The notes beneath the pieces are model-generated. The model worked only from the letters and a program-made list of their open reading frames with translations, ran no database searches and was not told the origin of the DNA. Below are positions 3,834 to 58,833 of a stretch of DNA of 64,000 nucleotides, piece by piece. The translations under genes were made by a program, and so were the position numbers. This DNA is from Stegostoma tigrinum. Taxonomy: Eukaryota. The stretch covers positions 20,420,629-20,484,628 of the forward strand of contig NC_081391.1 of the NCBI RefSeq assembly GCF_030684315.1. The letters run 5' to 3'. The first letter of the stretch is position 1. Each line of letters starts with the position of its first letter.

Positions 3834-6819
3834 ATGGCCTCCCAAGTGTGTCAGAACTACCACAAGGACTGTGAGGATGCTGTTAACAAGCAGATCAACC
3901 TGGAGCTCTATTCCTCCTATGTTTACCTCTCCATGGTGAGCCTAGTAATTTTGAAGGTCAATTCTTTTTATCTTGCTTCTCATTCCACTCTGCCCCACTG
4001 AGGTTGTCTGGGGTGGGCAATATGTCAGTCATGTTGATGCCCCATGTGTTTCAGTTAATGTGTTAAAACAATATCTTAAGTCAACAAATTAGCTTTGGAA
4101 TGTTTGGAATTTTTCTATCAAACTCATCCACTTGCGTGATTAAGGATTCTTGGTTGCCTTGTTAACTGATTTGCTTTATATTCTGTAACTTTGTTTTATT
4201 CTGAAGTGGTTTATGTTGGAACTAAATCCAAGATTCCTTACATTTTCCTGTGGATGACTTTCATAATGCATAAACCTGAACAAACTTCCTTAGAATTGAT
4301 TTAAAGATAATTGGGTGACTCATTTGTGAAACCAACTGAGCCCTTTTCTACCTGTATCTAAATGAGCATATTCCTGTTGTGTTGGCCTTCATGCTAGGTT
4401 GGTCCATGATAGTCAGATAATGGAAACTGTAGATGCTGGAGAATTGAAGATAATGAAGTGTGAAGCTAGATGAACACAGCAGGCCAAGCAGCATCTCAGG
4501 TGCACCACAGCTGACATCTTGGGCCAACACCCCCTGATGAAAGGTCTAGGCCTGAAACATCAGCTTTTGTGCTCCTGAGATGCTGTGTGGCTTGCTGTGT
4601 TCATCCAGCTTTGCACTTCATCATCCATGATGGTGCTTAGATTATTGCTTATGTTACTGTATTGAAGTCAAGGGATTTTTGTCACCACTGACTTTAGGTG
4701 ACCAAGGGCTTTTGGTGACAGGGTCTCTGACATCACTTGGGTTGAGGATAAAATTCAGGTTTCTAGCGTTGGGGTTGTGTCCCTTCTCATGAGATCTGGG
4801 AAGTAATGGCTACTGAGGTGTTTAGTGCAAGTTGCAACATTAGCTCCTATGTTAATTCCCTCCCTTCTGAGGGGTTGTGCCTCCTTTCCCCTACACTCAA
4901 ATGGCAGTCACAGTTGGAGAAGACAATGCAGGATCCAAATCCAAGCTTCTCACCAAAGGTCATCAAAAACATGACCTTGACCTTCATAAATTATGATCTC
5001 TAGTTCTGAACTCTACTGCCTCAACCTGTTCTTCCCTTGTCTAGGCCATTTGTACACAACCTTATTGAAGCTGAAAATAAGCCATACAGGCTCTGTGGCA
5101 CTTCTCAATGCATGAGATTTGGAGCTTGCCTGATTCTGTTGTCTTCTCTTCTCCCCACAGTTCTCTTACTTTGACCGGGATGACGTTTCCCTGCATCACT
5201 TTGCTGAGTTCTTCAAGGAGCAGTCACATGAGGAACGGGAACACGCTGAGAAACTGATGGCATTCCAGAATAAACGTGGAGGCCAAGTCCTCCTGCAGAA
5301 CATAAAGGTTGGTGAAGCCTCCTACATTACAGCTACCTGAACTAGACATAGATTTGATGCTTGAATTCAGCTGGTGTAATGCTATATGGTGCACTAGTTC
5401 CTAGTTGCAGTCTCATCTCATTATATTGCACTTCATTATTCACATGGGTGAAGCATCTCCTTTTTCGCTTCCCTCCAGAAGCCAGAGCAGGATGAGTGGG
5501 GCAATGGTCTGGAGGCAATGCAGAGAGCTCTGCAGATGGAGAAGGATGTGAACCAGAGTCTGCTGGATCTGCACAAACTCGCCTCTGGCCACACGGACCC
5601 TCATGTGAGTTCTTTATTCCTGTTTCACCCAAGTGATGGAAGTTTTGTTAAAATGACTGAGTGTACTTCTATCTCCCCTACGTGGCTGTTCAGCCTTTAC
5701 ATTAATATCTTTTACCTGAGAACGCTGCTTCACAAACCCTTCACTTTAAGTAGGCCACTCAGCCCATCAAGTTTCTTTAGCCATTCTGATCATGGTTGAT
5801 CTGAATCCTCCTCATTCAAGGGGATAAGGCTGGAAAGTGAAGGATTTCTGAATTTAACTGTCTCAGCCTTTATGCTTGAATTACCTGACCCCCAACAACC
5901 CTCTGCAGCCAAGAATTCCATGGGTTCCCTCGAGCCTTCAGCTCTCACTCCGTGGAATCCTCTCTTTTAGAGAGGTCTCCTTTCCATTCTGTGCTGAGTG
6001 CAGGCTTCACTGTTTCCCTTAAAACAAACCATCTGTCCCCAGGGTCACATGACAGCTAAGTTGCCATCCTGAATGTTCCCCTTATCTGGACGGCGGCTAA
6101 ATGATAGATGACGGTCTTCTCTTCCATGTCCTACCCTAACACTATGGGGTCTCATCTTGTCTGAGTGTACAGTCTCTCCAGACATTGGACCCTGTGTTTA
6201 AGTGAGTTTCCTTGATGACAAGGAAAAATCCAGCTTGCTGAACTGTGAAGGGAATGTTTGCTTTGCTTTTAGCTTGGTTTTTTATGCTGATCCTGAACAA
6301 AAACAATTGGGAGCCCCATATGTAGAGATGTTCAGATAGAAATGGAGAATGTGTGCTCCTCCTGCATTTTTGAAAATCACTGGGAGTGGGGCTGTGGCTT
6401 TAGGACATGAAAGAAAAATTGGCTTCAATCAATTCTTCCTCACCCCCACCCGCTCCCTAAGAGCAAGTGCTTATTCCATGGATCTGAAGCTTAATTTGTG
6501 CAATTTAAAAATAGTGACTTGTCACACAGTAAATTTCACTTCTCCTCAGCTAGAAGTGTTTGCATCATGACTTGCCTGAATCAATTGGAGGTGTTGGGGG
6601 AGGGGAAGGCACTTAAAATTCCAATTGTCAGTTCCCCTCCACACTAACCAGCTCTGCACCTGACTGTTCCAGCTGTGTGACTTCGTGGAGAGGCACTACT
6701 TGGATGAGCAAGTGAAGATGATCAAGAAGCTGGGAGATCACATCACCAACCTGAAGAGACTGGGAGCCCCTGACAATGGCATGGGAGAGTACCTGTTTGA
6801 CAGGCTCACACTCAGCTGA
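3834..6819 (+). CDS. fth1: Ferritin heavy/middle-subunit-like, copy 2 (intact, 173 aa)
   Basis: Exons 3834-3935, 5161-5307, 5479-5604, 6673-6819; all GT-AG, phase 0. [66 protein letters not shown].../...[10 protein letters not shown]. Ferroxidase ligands equivalent to human H E27, Y34, E61, E62, H65, E107, Q141 are present. The symbol is family-level, not an orthology call. Confidence 0.93.
4414..4623. mobile_element. Fold-back pair of Penelope-like element 3' termini in intron 1 of copy 2
   Basis: Two inverted copies of the PLE terminal sequence. Central CTGATGA-AAGGTCTAGGCCT-GAAACATC at 4534-4561. Flanking direct repeat TCCATGATAGT (4403-4413) / TCCATGATGGT (4624-4634). Confidence 0.8.
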
Positions 6820-55985: not shown

Positions 55986-58833
55986 TCAGCTCAGGGAGAG
56001 CTTGTCAAACAGGTACTCTCCCATGCCATTCTCAGGCCATCCCAGTCTCTTCAGGTTGGTGATGTGATCTCCCAGCTTCTTGATTATCTTCACTTGCTCA
56101 TCCACGTAGTGCCTCTCCAGGAAGTCACACAGCTGGAGAAAGAAAGCAACACGTTTGAAAATATTGAGGAGAATCTACACAAGAAAATTTAAAGAACCTT
56201 CCCTCAACTAATTCTGGGCAGCAACAACATGGATAGGCATTTCTAGTCCAACAGGATTGAAATTCACCAAGAAGCAAACCACTAATTTTACTTTTGTATC
56301 ACAAATTCAGATGTCAAAAAAAATGTAGAAGAAAAACACATACAACTGATCTAATACTGAATGTTGTGTGTGTAAAGCCACCTTCAGTTTTGTGTTTGTT
56401 TCAAATCTGTGAGCATTCCCTCCTGCGCTGCCATCCCAAAGTTCCCCAAAGGCTTCAGCTCCATGAAATAATCACTTGCCCTTGGGGATGGGGGGGGGGG
56501 GGGGGAGGAGGAGGAATTGATTGAAGCAAATTTTAATTCATGTCCTAAAGCCACAACCTCACACCCAGTGATGCGGGCCTTGGTTTCAGAATATGCAGGA
56601 GGAGCACATTCTCCATTTCTGTCTGAACAGCTCTACACATGAGGCTTCCAATTGGTTTTGTTCAGGATCAGCATAAAAGAGCTAAGCTAAAAAGCAAAGC
56701 AAACATTCCCTTCACAGTTCAGCAAGCTGGCTTCTTCCTTATCAGCAAGAAAATTTGCTTTACATGGGGTCTAAAGTCTGAAGAGATTGTAAACTCAGAC
56801 AACAGAGAGTGCATGGTGTTAGGGTCGGACATTAACAAGAGAGAAATAGTCATCTATCATTATTTAGCCAGAGCAGAGATAAGGGGAACATTCAGGATGG
56901 CAACTTAGCTGTCATGTGACCCTGGGGGCAGATGGATAGCTAAGGGAAATGTTCAAGCCTGCACTCAGCACAGAATGGAAAAGAGACCTCACTAAAAGAC
57001 AGGATTCTATGGGGCTTTACAGGGCCCAAGTGGAACTTACATTTCTCCCTGAGAGAGAGCCTATGATCTGAAGGCATGATCTCAGGTAAGGGCTTAGACA
57101 GGAAACCTCTTGGGAGTGAAGCTGTGGAATTCTAGGCTGCAGAGGGCTGTTGAGGATGGTCACATTAACAATAAAAAACCCACTAAAGGAATCAAGATTT
57201 AGGTGGATAAGGCTGGAAAGTAAAGTTGATGATTCAGGTCAGCCATGATTGGGGATGCCAGAACAAACCTGCTGGGCTGAGTGGCCCACTTCTTCCTTCT
57301 AGTTGATGTGAAGGAGCATTCTCAGGTAAAAGATGTTGGTGTAAAGGCTGAAAAGCTACATCAGGGAAATACAAATCTTGATATTAACATTCAAACCCAG
57401 TCATTTTGATCCAACTTCAATCACATGTTTTAAACTAGAATGAAGAACTCACATGAGGGTCCATGTGGCCAGAGGCGAGTTTGTGCAGATCCAGCAGACT
57501 CTGGTTCACATCCTTCTCCATCTGCAGAGCTCTCTGCATTGCCTCCAGACCATTGCCCCACTCATCCTGCTCTGACTTCTAATGGAAGAGAAAGGGGGTC
57601 ATTTTCTTAGAGTGAACATTCAATCCAGTGGAAGTGTAAGAGAAAGGCAGGCTAACAGGGCATCAGTATAGAATTGCCATCAGCCAACAAAGTTAAATTA
57701 CTTCAAATCCATATGGAGCGGAGTTACTTCTAATCTAGTAGAATAAAAATTGAATTAAACCCAACCTTGATGTCCTGCAGGAGGACTCGACCTCCACGTT
57801 TATTCTGGAATGCCATCAGTTTCTCAGCATGTTCCCGTTCCTCAAGGGACTGCTCCTTGAAGAACTCAGCAAAGTGACGCAGGGCAACATCATCCCGGTT
57901 AAAGCAAGAGGACTGTGGGAAGAAGAGTTAAACAATTCTTATTATCTTTAACTGCTATTCGGTTTCAGACATGGAAAGAAAACAGATGTGTCAAGATCCT
58001 GTACCATTCTAAAGTTGCTGATGGGCAGTTAGGAAGCTCTTCAGAGTCAAACAGAAAGTTGACTTTGAGATGCACTTTTTAACAGAAATTGTTAGAATAT
58101 GCTTCCCCTTGTCCTGCTGATGGGGAATTGCTTGAACTTCCATTCCTGTTAATAGTGGGACTCGCTTCAAGTGAAGAAACATCTCGGAGTCACTGAATGA
58201 TCTTACTGTCATAAACTGACCAGTTTCCTCCAGTACAGTGGCAATTGATACTGAGTCCAAACTACTTGAGTTCTTGTCTTATAAATTTAAAAAAAATCAC
58301 ACCAGTCACAGTAAACTCACATTGCTATTGAATGGCATGTATTCCTTGAGCAAAGCTCTTCAGAATCTTCAAAAGTACATTGACAGCTAGAGGTAAAGAA
58401 TATAAATGAAGACACGTTCACCATTGCACCAGCTACAGTCACCCTATTAACGACCATTCCCTTAAACAATAGTTGAGCGACCTTTGTGTTGTTGAGTAAC
58501 CTTTGTGTTGTTGATTTGTTACAATAACTGGGCAGAGTAGCCCAGCATTAAACCCCCATAGAAAACAGCTACTGTAAGGAACAGCCCATTGACTCTGTAA
58601 TAACTTCCACACAAAGTCCTTCACTACTCAAAAGTGTTGCTGTCCCAGCAATCAAGTGAGCTAAAGCCCTTTTATTAATCGTGAGATACTCCAATTTCTC
58701 CAAATACACTGGCAAGGAATACAAGGCTCACCATGGAGTGGTAAGTATAGGAGGAATAGAGCTCCAGGTTGATCTGCTTGTTAACAGCAGCCTCACAGTC
58801 CTTGTGGTAGTTCTGACACACTTGGGAGGCCAT
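55986..58833 (-). CDS. fth1: Ferritin heavy/middle-subunit-like, copy 10 (intact, most divergent)
   Basis: Exons 58833-58732 (...[22 protein letters not shown]), 57912-57766 ([28 protein letters not shown]...), 57578-57453, 56132-55986 (...[12 protein letters not shown]...[18 protein letters not shown]); TATAAAT at 58906-58900. Family-level symbol. Confidence 0.9.

Follow-up and report, generated by a model that had tools for sequence, protein, structure and literature searches.

The mechanism considered here is an established one, exon-level conversion being known from other gene families, and the shark ferritin array appears to show it unusually clearly. The zebrafish NLR-B30.2 family (PMC4852459) has ~400 clustered genes in which conversion differs by gene part and exons are shuffled between members; there, the protein domains are reassorted and diversified, whereas in the ferritin array the protein is uniform and the non-coding sequence is reassorted. 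In teleost protocadherin clusters (PMC1852091), regional gene conversion likewise homogenises the paralogues of a vertebrate tandem cluster, but it is described as acting within subclusters and the abstract reports no intron exchange. The beta-tubulin paralogues of Leishmania (PMC1533823) combine concerted coding sequences with distinct flanking regulatory regions, although these are few loci in a protist and the abstract reports no reassortment of introns. Conversion also separates coding from non-coding histories in the mammalian BEX/WEX/GASP chimaeras (PMC1274310) and in the primate opsins (PMC3924837), but with the reverse polarity, the UTR or the introns being homogenised while the coding sequence diverges. 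Lastly, the 127 tandem genes of the silkmoth chorion locus (PMC4639761) are expressed in the ovary, where they provide egg protein in bulk, and they too include pseudogenes and undergo conversion; in contrast to the ferritin array, these genes are paired and have two exons, their coding sequences are far more divergent, and the available part of the text mentions no swaps of whole introns.

The expansion of the shark ferritin cluster has already been published (bioRxiv 10.1101/2024.09.09.611499). The main text of that preprint never mentions gene conversion (0 occurrences), and its section 6 contains no analysis of introns, which are analysed here. Within the literature on ferritin combined with shark, elasmobranch, conversion or FTH1, no publication on conversion or intron exchange in the shark ferritin cluster was found, nor was intron swapping in the array found in print, and ferritin has 0 occurrences in a second Greenland shark preprint (10.1101/2025.02.19.638963). 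Judging from its size and organisation, the Stegostoma array is probably the orthologue of the largest cluster described in the first preprint. The tandem array covers ~1.66 Mb and holds ~200 genes (204 gene models were examined within 1.42 Mb); it was analysed in one assembly, which has a 33-kb gap inside the array, and a search for further array parts with one extended exon-4 pattern gave 0 matches. The window, that is, the whole stretch of 64,000 nucleotides that was analysed, contains 11 four-exon ferritin copies, mapped exon by exon, with copies 2, 4, 5, 8, 9, and 10 intact and copies 3, 6, 7, and 11 pseudogenes. The features, in positions of the window, are as follows.

757..1155, plus strand: copy 1, exon 3 at 757-869 (frameshifted) and exon 4 at 1009-1155; exons 1-2 are immediately upstream, outside the window
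3834..6819, plus strand: copy 2, intact ferritin, exons 3834-3935, 5161-5307, 5479-5604, 6673-6819
5605..6672, plus strand: intron 3 of copy 2; its core 5955-6490 matches copy 10 at 57007-56452 (82% by BLAST), a type present only in the array
6820..7572, plus strand: 3' flank of copy 2, common to copy 5 (24813-25592, ~90%)
10072..11353, plus strand: upstream region of copy 3 (the same in copy 6), common to copy 9
11354..13127, plus strand: copy 3, pseudogene, with a lost acceptor, a stop in exon 2 and a frameshift in exon 4
17622..19769, plus strand: copy 4, intact, exons 17622-17723, 18616-18762, 19249-19374, 19623-19769
18763..19248, plus strand: intron 2 of copy 4, common to copy 5 (23639-24121, 86%)
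22577..24812, plus strand: copy 5, intact, exons 22577-22678, 23492-23638, 24122-24247, 24666-24812
29781..31571, plus strand: copy 6, pseudogene of the copy 3 lineage
38700..39821, plus strand: chimeric upstream region of copy 7, of copy-4 type to ~39333 and then of pseudogene type, with the junction outside exons
39822..41582, plus strand: copy 7, pseudogene
43494..45921, minus strand: copy 8, intact, exons 45921-45820, 44738-44592, 43987-43862, 43640-43494
50274..52672, minus strand: copy 9, intact, exons 52672-52571, 51157-51011, 50847-50722, 50420-50274
55986..58833, minus strand: copy 10, intact, exons 58833-58732, 57912-57766, 57578-57453, 56132-55986
59811..61732, minus strand: copy 11, pseudogene with stops in exon 2

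The genes have four exons with canonical splice sites, a structure that we take to be that of vertebrate ferritins of the H/M type, and when the four exons were scanned, exons 2 and 3 matched Pfam Ferritin (PF00210) above the cut-off, while neither exon 1 nor exon 4 matched on its own. Residues E24, Y31, E58, E59, E104, and Q138 are present in 84/84 intact genes and H62 in 83/84; by correspondence to the human H chain, these seven are presumably the ferroxidase ligand set. The 80 distinct proteins have a mean identity of 92%. A TATA-like box lies ~75 nt before the ATG, implying a short leader, and the Rfam scan of the window gave 0 matches at gathering score, the iron-responsive element of the 5'UTR included.

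The initial annotation held that the exons of intact copies are nearly identical even at silent sites while their non-coding parts point to conflicting partners, and this was confirmed. Pairs of the six intact window copies differ at 1-8 positions per 102 nt in exon 1, 6-16 per 147 nt in exon 2, 1-6 per 126 nt in exon 3, and 1-12 per 147 nt in exon 4, exon 2 (pS 0.163) being less homogenised than the others. Across 76 intact genes of the array, the silent divergence of young pairs tracks intron divergence up to ~0.05 (pS/intron 0.007/0.006, 0.020/0.015, 0.057/0.056); it is 0.04-0.06 where introns have diverged by 0.065-0.13, and only 0.096 in the 2180 pairs without any alignable intron. This and the other statistics assume independent pairs and sites, both of which are non-independent here. 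Silent divergence thus flattens at 0.04-0.10 while introns diverge to the point of being unalignable. The opposite outcome, a single tree for all partitions and exon dS equal to intron divergence, was in effect looked for; incompatible partners and the pS plateau were found.

Most intron pairs in the window score like shuffled sequence (null maximum 27-29), and the exceptions conflict with one another. Intron 2 is shared by copies 4 and 5 (score 470, 86% over 448 nt), despite which introns 1 and 3 of these two copies are unrelated; the 3' flank of copy 2 is shared with copy 5 (score 1084, 91% over 751 nt) and continues far beyond the likely polyA signal near +83; and the promoters of copies 4 and 8 match at 76% over 550 nt upstream. 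Intron 3 of copies 2 and 10 also matches strongly, over a 529-nt core (score 580, 87%) and not over its whole length. The likeness of the 3' flanks of copies 8 and 9 (score 57) and of intron 1 between copies 3/6/7 and copy 11 (scores 76-101) is present but weak and old. The promoter match to copy 9 extends over ~970 nt in copies 3 and 6 (96-97%), but in copy 7 it is confined to the vicinity of the gene, the flank beyond ~-490 being that of copy 4 (97%). Profiled on copy 6, the upstream regions of copies 3/6 and 9 are 98-100% alike from ~-1250 to -500 and 86-91% closer to the gene. This upstream segment of copies 3/6/9 contains an old repeat, found elsewhere at ~70-86%, but the 97-99% matches of the segment all lie in the array among the 40 of 230 candidates scored.

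Across the array, intron types were assigned by a probe test, an earlier single-linkage typing having chained unrelated types. In 126 genes, a raw count places 33 type switches across exon intervals, with another 2 inside introns and another 8 in flanks; counted conservatively, 20/22 switches fall at exons 2-4, where 30% would be expected from length (p=3e-9), in a test that is blind to exchanges between copies sharing an intron type. Reportedly, the conversion tracts of teleost protocadherins lie within one large exon. Single switches occur at C50:20,116,433 (exon 3) and, outside the window, at 20,059,560 and 20,363,022 (exon 1, both clean). Double switches replaced introns 2 and 3 at C50:20,888,635 and intron 2 at C50:20,906,223; at C50:20,915,074, intron 3 is 95% like that of copy 1, and at C50:21,536,002, intron 2 is 94% like left-array genes and the rest 92-96% like right-array genes. 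It is in this last, distant gene that the intron 2 type of copies 4 and 5 occurs alone. Both flanks are retained around one or two swapped introns at C50:21,536,002, 20,888,635, and 20,906,223, which points to non-reciprocal tracts, although a double crossover may have the same outcome. The proposal that exons act as recombination or conversion hubs is supported, with the qualification that promoter junctions often lie near -500, outside exon 1 (copy 7; copies 3/6 against 9), the two clean exon-1 switches notwithstanding. As for exchange across opposite orientations, the cases in the window are uninformative: 8/9 close relatives of the intron 3 of copy 2, its own included, are on the minus strand, as is copy 10, which in turn has a twin on the plus strand, so that opposite orientation within the window proves nothing. 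More telling is the gene at C50:21,536,002, ~1.1 Mb from the window, whose intron 2 comes from a subfamily >1 Mb distant with its closest members on the other strand.

With a probability of roughly 85%, exchange between copies that opens and closes in exons keeps the exons alike and reassorts introns and flanks; exons are near-identical and introns and flanks unrelated, in mixed combinations, likely because recombination starts and ends in exons. Specifically, selection on the protein would hold exons alike while introns drift (pN/pS 0.36), and short tracts within exons would reset silent sites and spread variants, as suggested by alleles common to several copies, by the decay of linkage, and by a patch in a pseudogene lineage. 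Between palindrome partners, 107/134 silent exon differences are alleles found in copies with unrelated flanking introns (53% expected), and 92/115 without CpG sites (49% expected), under a null that models CpG hot spots only. Counting against this reading, the palindrome arms have no significant exon excess of divergence, exon against non-coding being 2.05% vs 1.78% (p=0.15) and 3.8% vs 4.0% (p=0.38), and variant counts show no significant GC bias (p=0.25), despite the higher GC of four-fold sites. Correlations of exon-to-exon distances range from -0.06 to 0.21 (821 pairs, 44 non-redundant genes), and r2, which is 0.093 within 30 bp, drops to 0.03-0.04 at greater distances. In the pseudogene lineage, exon 1 differs from the majority at 13-17 positions and exon 2 at 25-36 (42 in one rearranged copy); in exon 4 of 20/22 copies, nt 4-99 carry 0-2 differences and nt 100-141 carry 8-10, with a boundary picked after inspection and with the two excluded copies (window copies 3 and 7, which have indels) differing more there. 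Longer tracts, running from one exon to a later one, would replace whole introns as cassettes, and single exonic crossovers would yield genes whose 5' half comes from one subfamily and whose 3' half comes from a different one, the products of both being seen; block duplication and one large inverted duplication, also seen, would then multiply the chimeras. The shuffling is probably a by-product with no selected function.

Germline homogenisation of the exons alone, with reverse-transcribed mRNA as donor or by RNA-templated repair, has little chance of being the explanation. It would fit the drop of identity to background at most ~10 nt from each splice site, the reported ovary expression of the Greenland shark cluster, and a processed, 5'-truncated copy on contig C17 in which exon 3 is joined precisely to exon 4, so that germline cDNA of the family once existed. 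Yet a screen of 1.26 Mb for exon junctions returned 0 for exon 1|2, 0 for exon 2|3, and 1 for exon 3|4, which is consistent with the C17 copy as the only intron loss and with no precise loss in the array. Moreover, the 3'UTRs are not homogenised, some intron bases outside the splice consensus are common to different intron types, and the swapped pieces are whole introns and flanks reaching ~750 nt beyond the stop.

Birth-and-death with strong purifying selection that includes silent sites, the intron matches being remnants of descent decayed at unequal rates, is very unlikely. The seven iron-site residues are indeed nearly invariant in the 84 intact genes, and four-fold sites have 62% GC (GC4 0.62) against 42% in introns. 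Furthermore, among the rows listed, four organisms have the same majority alleles at the silent sites of exons 3-4: with three others, the majority differs at 2 amino-acid-changing sites and 0 silent ones, and in exon 4, one near-fixed and one partly sorted site split organisms A and C from B and D, with no silent one among the sites listed. This common silent consensus means that silent-site constraint may contribute, or that turnover is slow. But descent of this kind cannot yield a gene in which one part has 90-99% likeness to one subfamily and the next part 90% to a subfamily unalignable with the first; silent sites of young pairs change at the pace of introns (pN/pS 0.5-0.7), and the exon-4 patch was reset in a broken lineage. 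The mosaic genes refute it as the sole cause, while it may contribute to the frozen consensus. An origin of the mosaics in assembly errors, or of the shared introns in independent insertions of one dispersed repeat, is hardly credible. In its favour, the data are a single assembly, the 1.66-Mb array is highly repetitive and interrupted by the 33-kb gap, neither reads nor contigs bridge a mosaic junction, and the contigs compared, too short to bridge exons or span a whole gene, neither confirmed nor rejected the junctions. Against it, each mosaic part resembles its nearest donor at 89-97% and is not identical to it, up to 9 diverged copies carry the same mosaic, intron types also exist in another organism, and repeat insertion is rejected for the two introns examined, whose genome-wide matches all lie inside the array (30/30 and 12/12).

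Exchange through exons has consequences for how the family is read. Near-identical exons in copies with unalignably old introns mean that trees and dates built on coding sequence give neither duplication ages nor orthology, which bears on the claimed age and lineage specificity of the shark ferritin expansion. In addition, dozens of exchange events can be followed in a vertebrate by the natural marks that they carry. The minimum homology for efficient recombination is often cited as 200-300 bp, and the events here took place on shorter homologies, so that tract length and the influence of distance and orientation can be measured directly from population long reads. The most likely role of the array, suggested by work on another shark, is bulk supply of ferritin, perhaps for eggs. 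A wider reading, rather unlikely, is that shark germlines would recombine efficiently on homology islands of 100-150 bp, >1 Mb apart and on opposite strands; the ~200 ferritin genes would then form one pool of coding alleles kept close to a master sequence with hardly any change from species to species, with ancient introns, promoters, and 3'UTRs as interchangeable cassettes able to retune expression and mRNA handling in eggs.

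The window contains 11 copies of a ferritin gene that has four exons and encodes 174 residues, as recovered by self-comparison and exon mapping; six are intact (copies 2, 4, 5, 8, 9, and 10), four are broken (copies 3, 6, 7, and 11), and copy 1 is truncated at the window edge and frameshifted. They belong to a tandem array that extends from about 19.95 to 21.61 Mb on NC_081391.1, where the window occupies 20,420,629-20,484,628, and a 29-nt exon-4 word has 232 exact matches in the 3.2-Gb genome. The analysed sequence comprises 1.42 Mb of the array, window included, with the stretch at 21.185-21.49 Mb lying outside it: a continuous 1.164 Mb holds 174 gene models (139 four-exon, 84 intact under a strict rule), and a further 260 kb of array holds 30 additional models. 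The left end of the array lies at a 33-kb gap, and an unplaced 267-kb contig (C216) carries more ferritin copies, of the right-array type at 98-100% in two stretches, and may represent a collapsed extension of the array or a second haplotype. The stretch at 19.95-20.46 Mb harbours a 22-copy pseudogene lineage carried inside repeated blocks, 7 of the 22 copies consisting of exon 4 only. An inverted exon 3 fragment lies about 1 kb 3' of each copy of this lineage (14058-14115, 36078-36136, and 42467-42557 in the window) and repeats across the left subarray. A GC-skewed, C-rich insertion (31700-35250) that contains short tandem repeats lies 3' of copy 6 and breaks up the flank common to copies 3, 6, and 7, and a short interspersed repeat of very high copy number occurs at 4415-4620 (copy 2 intron 1) and at several other window sites.

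The proposal of the initial annotation that exons are nearly identical between intact copies while their non-coding parts pair up inconsistently is borne out: intact copies differ by 1-8% in exons 1, 3, and 4 and by 4-11% in exon 2, while most intron pairs among them score no higher than shuffled sequence. The individual intron and flank matches that it named are real exceptions to this unrelated background, two of them being weak and old. The upstream region of copy 7, which it grouped with those of copies 3 and 6, is chimeric, copy-4 type and pseudogene type meeting near -490. Within the window the promoter junctions are located near -500, and the 98-100% match of copies 3 and 6 to copy 9 is confined to the sequence upstream of this position, so that flanks are reassorted also by events outside exons. 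The core promoter (3600-3833 and the equivalent region of each copy) contains several CCAAT-like boxes and, about 75 nt before the ATG, a TATA-like box, and the subfamilies are about 70-80% alike there; no iron-responsive element was found in the window.

Pairwise similarity profiles along the array reveal clear recombinant genes:

Gene 20,116,433: 5' half of one subfamily (90-99%), intron 3 and 3' flank of the copy 2 subfamily (90%)
Genes 20,059,560 and 20,363,022: switch at exon 1
Palindrome partner of gene 20,494,413: intron 1 and 3' flank retained, introns 2 and 3 of copy-9 type (93% and 89%)
Palindrome partner of copy 9: intron 3 95% like intron 3 of copy 1
Gene 21,536,002, plus strand: promoter, introns 1 and 3, and flank of the right-hand subfamily (92-96%)

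Intron 2 of the last gene has no match among its neighbours and is 94% like that of genes in the left array, at a distance of 1.2-1.5 Mb. In a probe test for switches between unrelated types covering 126 genes, the raw switches number 33 in exon intervals (918 bp), 2 in introns (1271 bp), and 8 in flanks (760 bp); under a count strict for exons and lenient for introns, exons 2-4 receive 20 of the 22 switches, where 30% is expected from length. The counted events are non-independent, and repeats may have produced some of the exon-interval rows. The array combines exons that are uniform with introns of unrelated types, and its mosaic genes, with one switch or two, have their junctions at exons.

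Exchange across opposite orientations, also proposed initially, is not shown by the in-window pairs. Specifically, the plus-strand block of the window is a local inversion in an otherwise mainly minus-strand subarray, and there are plus-strand twins of the minus-strand copies, which makes these pairs uninformative. Support comes instead from gene 21,536,002, outside the window: of the 30 genome-wide matches of its intron 2 type, all but 3 (copies 4 and 5 and gene 21,536,002) lie on the minus strand; so do the eight best donors, at 93-94%, with copy 4 reaching 90%. These alignments support a putative opposite-strand exchange into this gene, unless its donor sits in the gap or has since been lost or inverted.

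Silent divergence (pS) among 76 intact genes tracks intron divergence to about 0.05 and then reaches a plateau. The 2180 pairs without an alignable intron have a pS of 0.096 and a replacement divergence (pN) of 0.035, pS being 0.092, 0.163, 0.067, and 0.060 in exons 1 to 4, respectively. Strong silent-site selection acting on single copies probably does not explain this by itself, since silent changes accrue at intron speed in young pairs, and since pN/pS is 0.36-0.7. In 44 non-redundant genes, the distance matrices of the four exons are nearly uncorrelated, and linkage falls off over about 30 bp. Copies 3, 6, and 7 belong to the pseudogene lineage, which has a common exon-2 stop, and exon 4 in 20 of its 22 copies (two with indels and more differences were omitted) shows 0-2 differences from the majority at nt 4-99 and 8-10 at nt 100-141. 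The evidence points to short conversion tracts that act on exons regardless of function. Four-fold sites have a high GC content, and a frequency test for GC bias on variants was not significant.

A large inverted duplication spans about 20.46-20.93 Mb, with its centre near 20.695 Mb and arms of about 230 kb, the left of which includes window positions 43494-64000; the arms are about 98% alike in the inner part and 96% in the outer. Between palindrome partners (32 gene pairs listed, 30 used after dropping two mispaired rows), exon and non-coding differences are 2.05% versus 1.78% in the inner part and 3.8% versus 4.0% in the outer, neither contrast being significant. Among the exon differences, 107 of 134 silent ones (expected 53%) and 129 of 184 replacement ones (expected 38%) correspond to alleles found in copies with unrelated flanking introns, and in several single exons the differences cluster far over the non-coding rate of the same gene. 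The absence of substitutions across about 3.7 kb of the pseudogene pair 20,575,371 / 20,816,163 suggests recent arm-to-arm conversion.

In the mechanism that we infer, selection would hold the exons over a similarity threshold for pairing, short tracts would polish them, longer tracts and crossovers would move introns and flanks, and block duplications would multiply the products. Homogenisation of exons from an RNA template is disfavoured by zero intron loss in the screened part of the array, by 3'UTRs that are not homogenised, and by the non-coding nature of the moving cassettes, although germline cDNA has existed: a 5'-truncated processed copy on another contig, C17 (near 12.130 Mb; positions 5045-5235 of L101, a stretch of that contig), has part of exon 3 fused to exon 4, 98.6% identity in exon 4, and a short 3'UTR, which shows that reverse transcription of this family has occurred in the germline. 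Mis-assembly is disfavoured as the origin of the mosaics because their parts show divergence from the donors and are found again in several copies.

Contigs of three other organisms carry nearly the same exons. Among the listed majority differences in exons 3-4 of the four organisms (A-D), two amino-acid sites in exon 4, one near-fixed and one partly sorted, set A and C apart from the pair B and D across nearly all contigs: position 109 (window 43532) and position 102 (window 43539). None of these listed differences is silent, in contigs whose depths are not equivalent to copy numbers; silent-site constraint or slow family-wide turnover may lie behind the shared silent sequence. Many contigs of one run of organism B (X6) look like RNA because intron 3 (window 43640-43862) is precisely skipped, suggesting that a relative makes spliced transcripts of this family.

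The shark ferritin expansion has been published for two sharks, with no mention of conversion in the main text of the preprint (bioRxiv 10.1101/2024.09.09.611499). No published account of intron exchange anchored in exons was found for shark ferritins, in a search with thin coverage of subscription papers and preprint supplements. Part-gene conversion and chimerism are known in zebrafish NLRs (PMC4852459), protocadherins (PMC1852091), Leishmania tubulins (PMC1533823), BEX/GASP genes (PMC1274310), opsins (PMC3924837), and chorion genes (PMC4639761). The ferritin array is a real and well-supported instance of an established process in an already known gene family; it stands out by its scale, the shortness of the homologies, and the movement of whole-intron cassettes.
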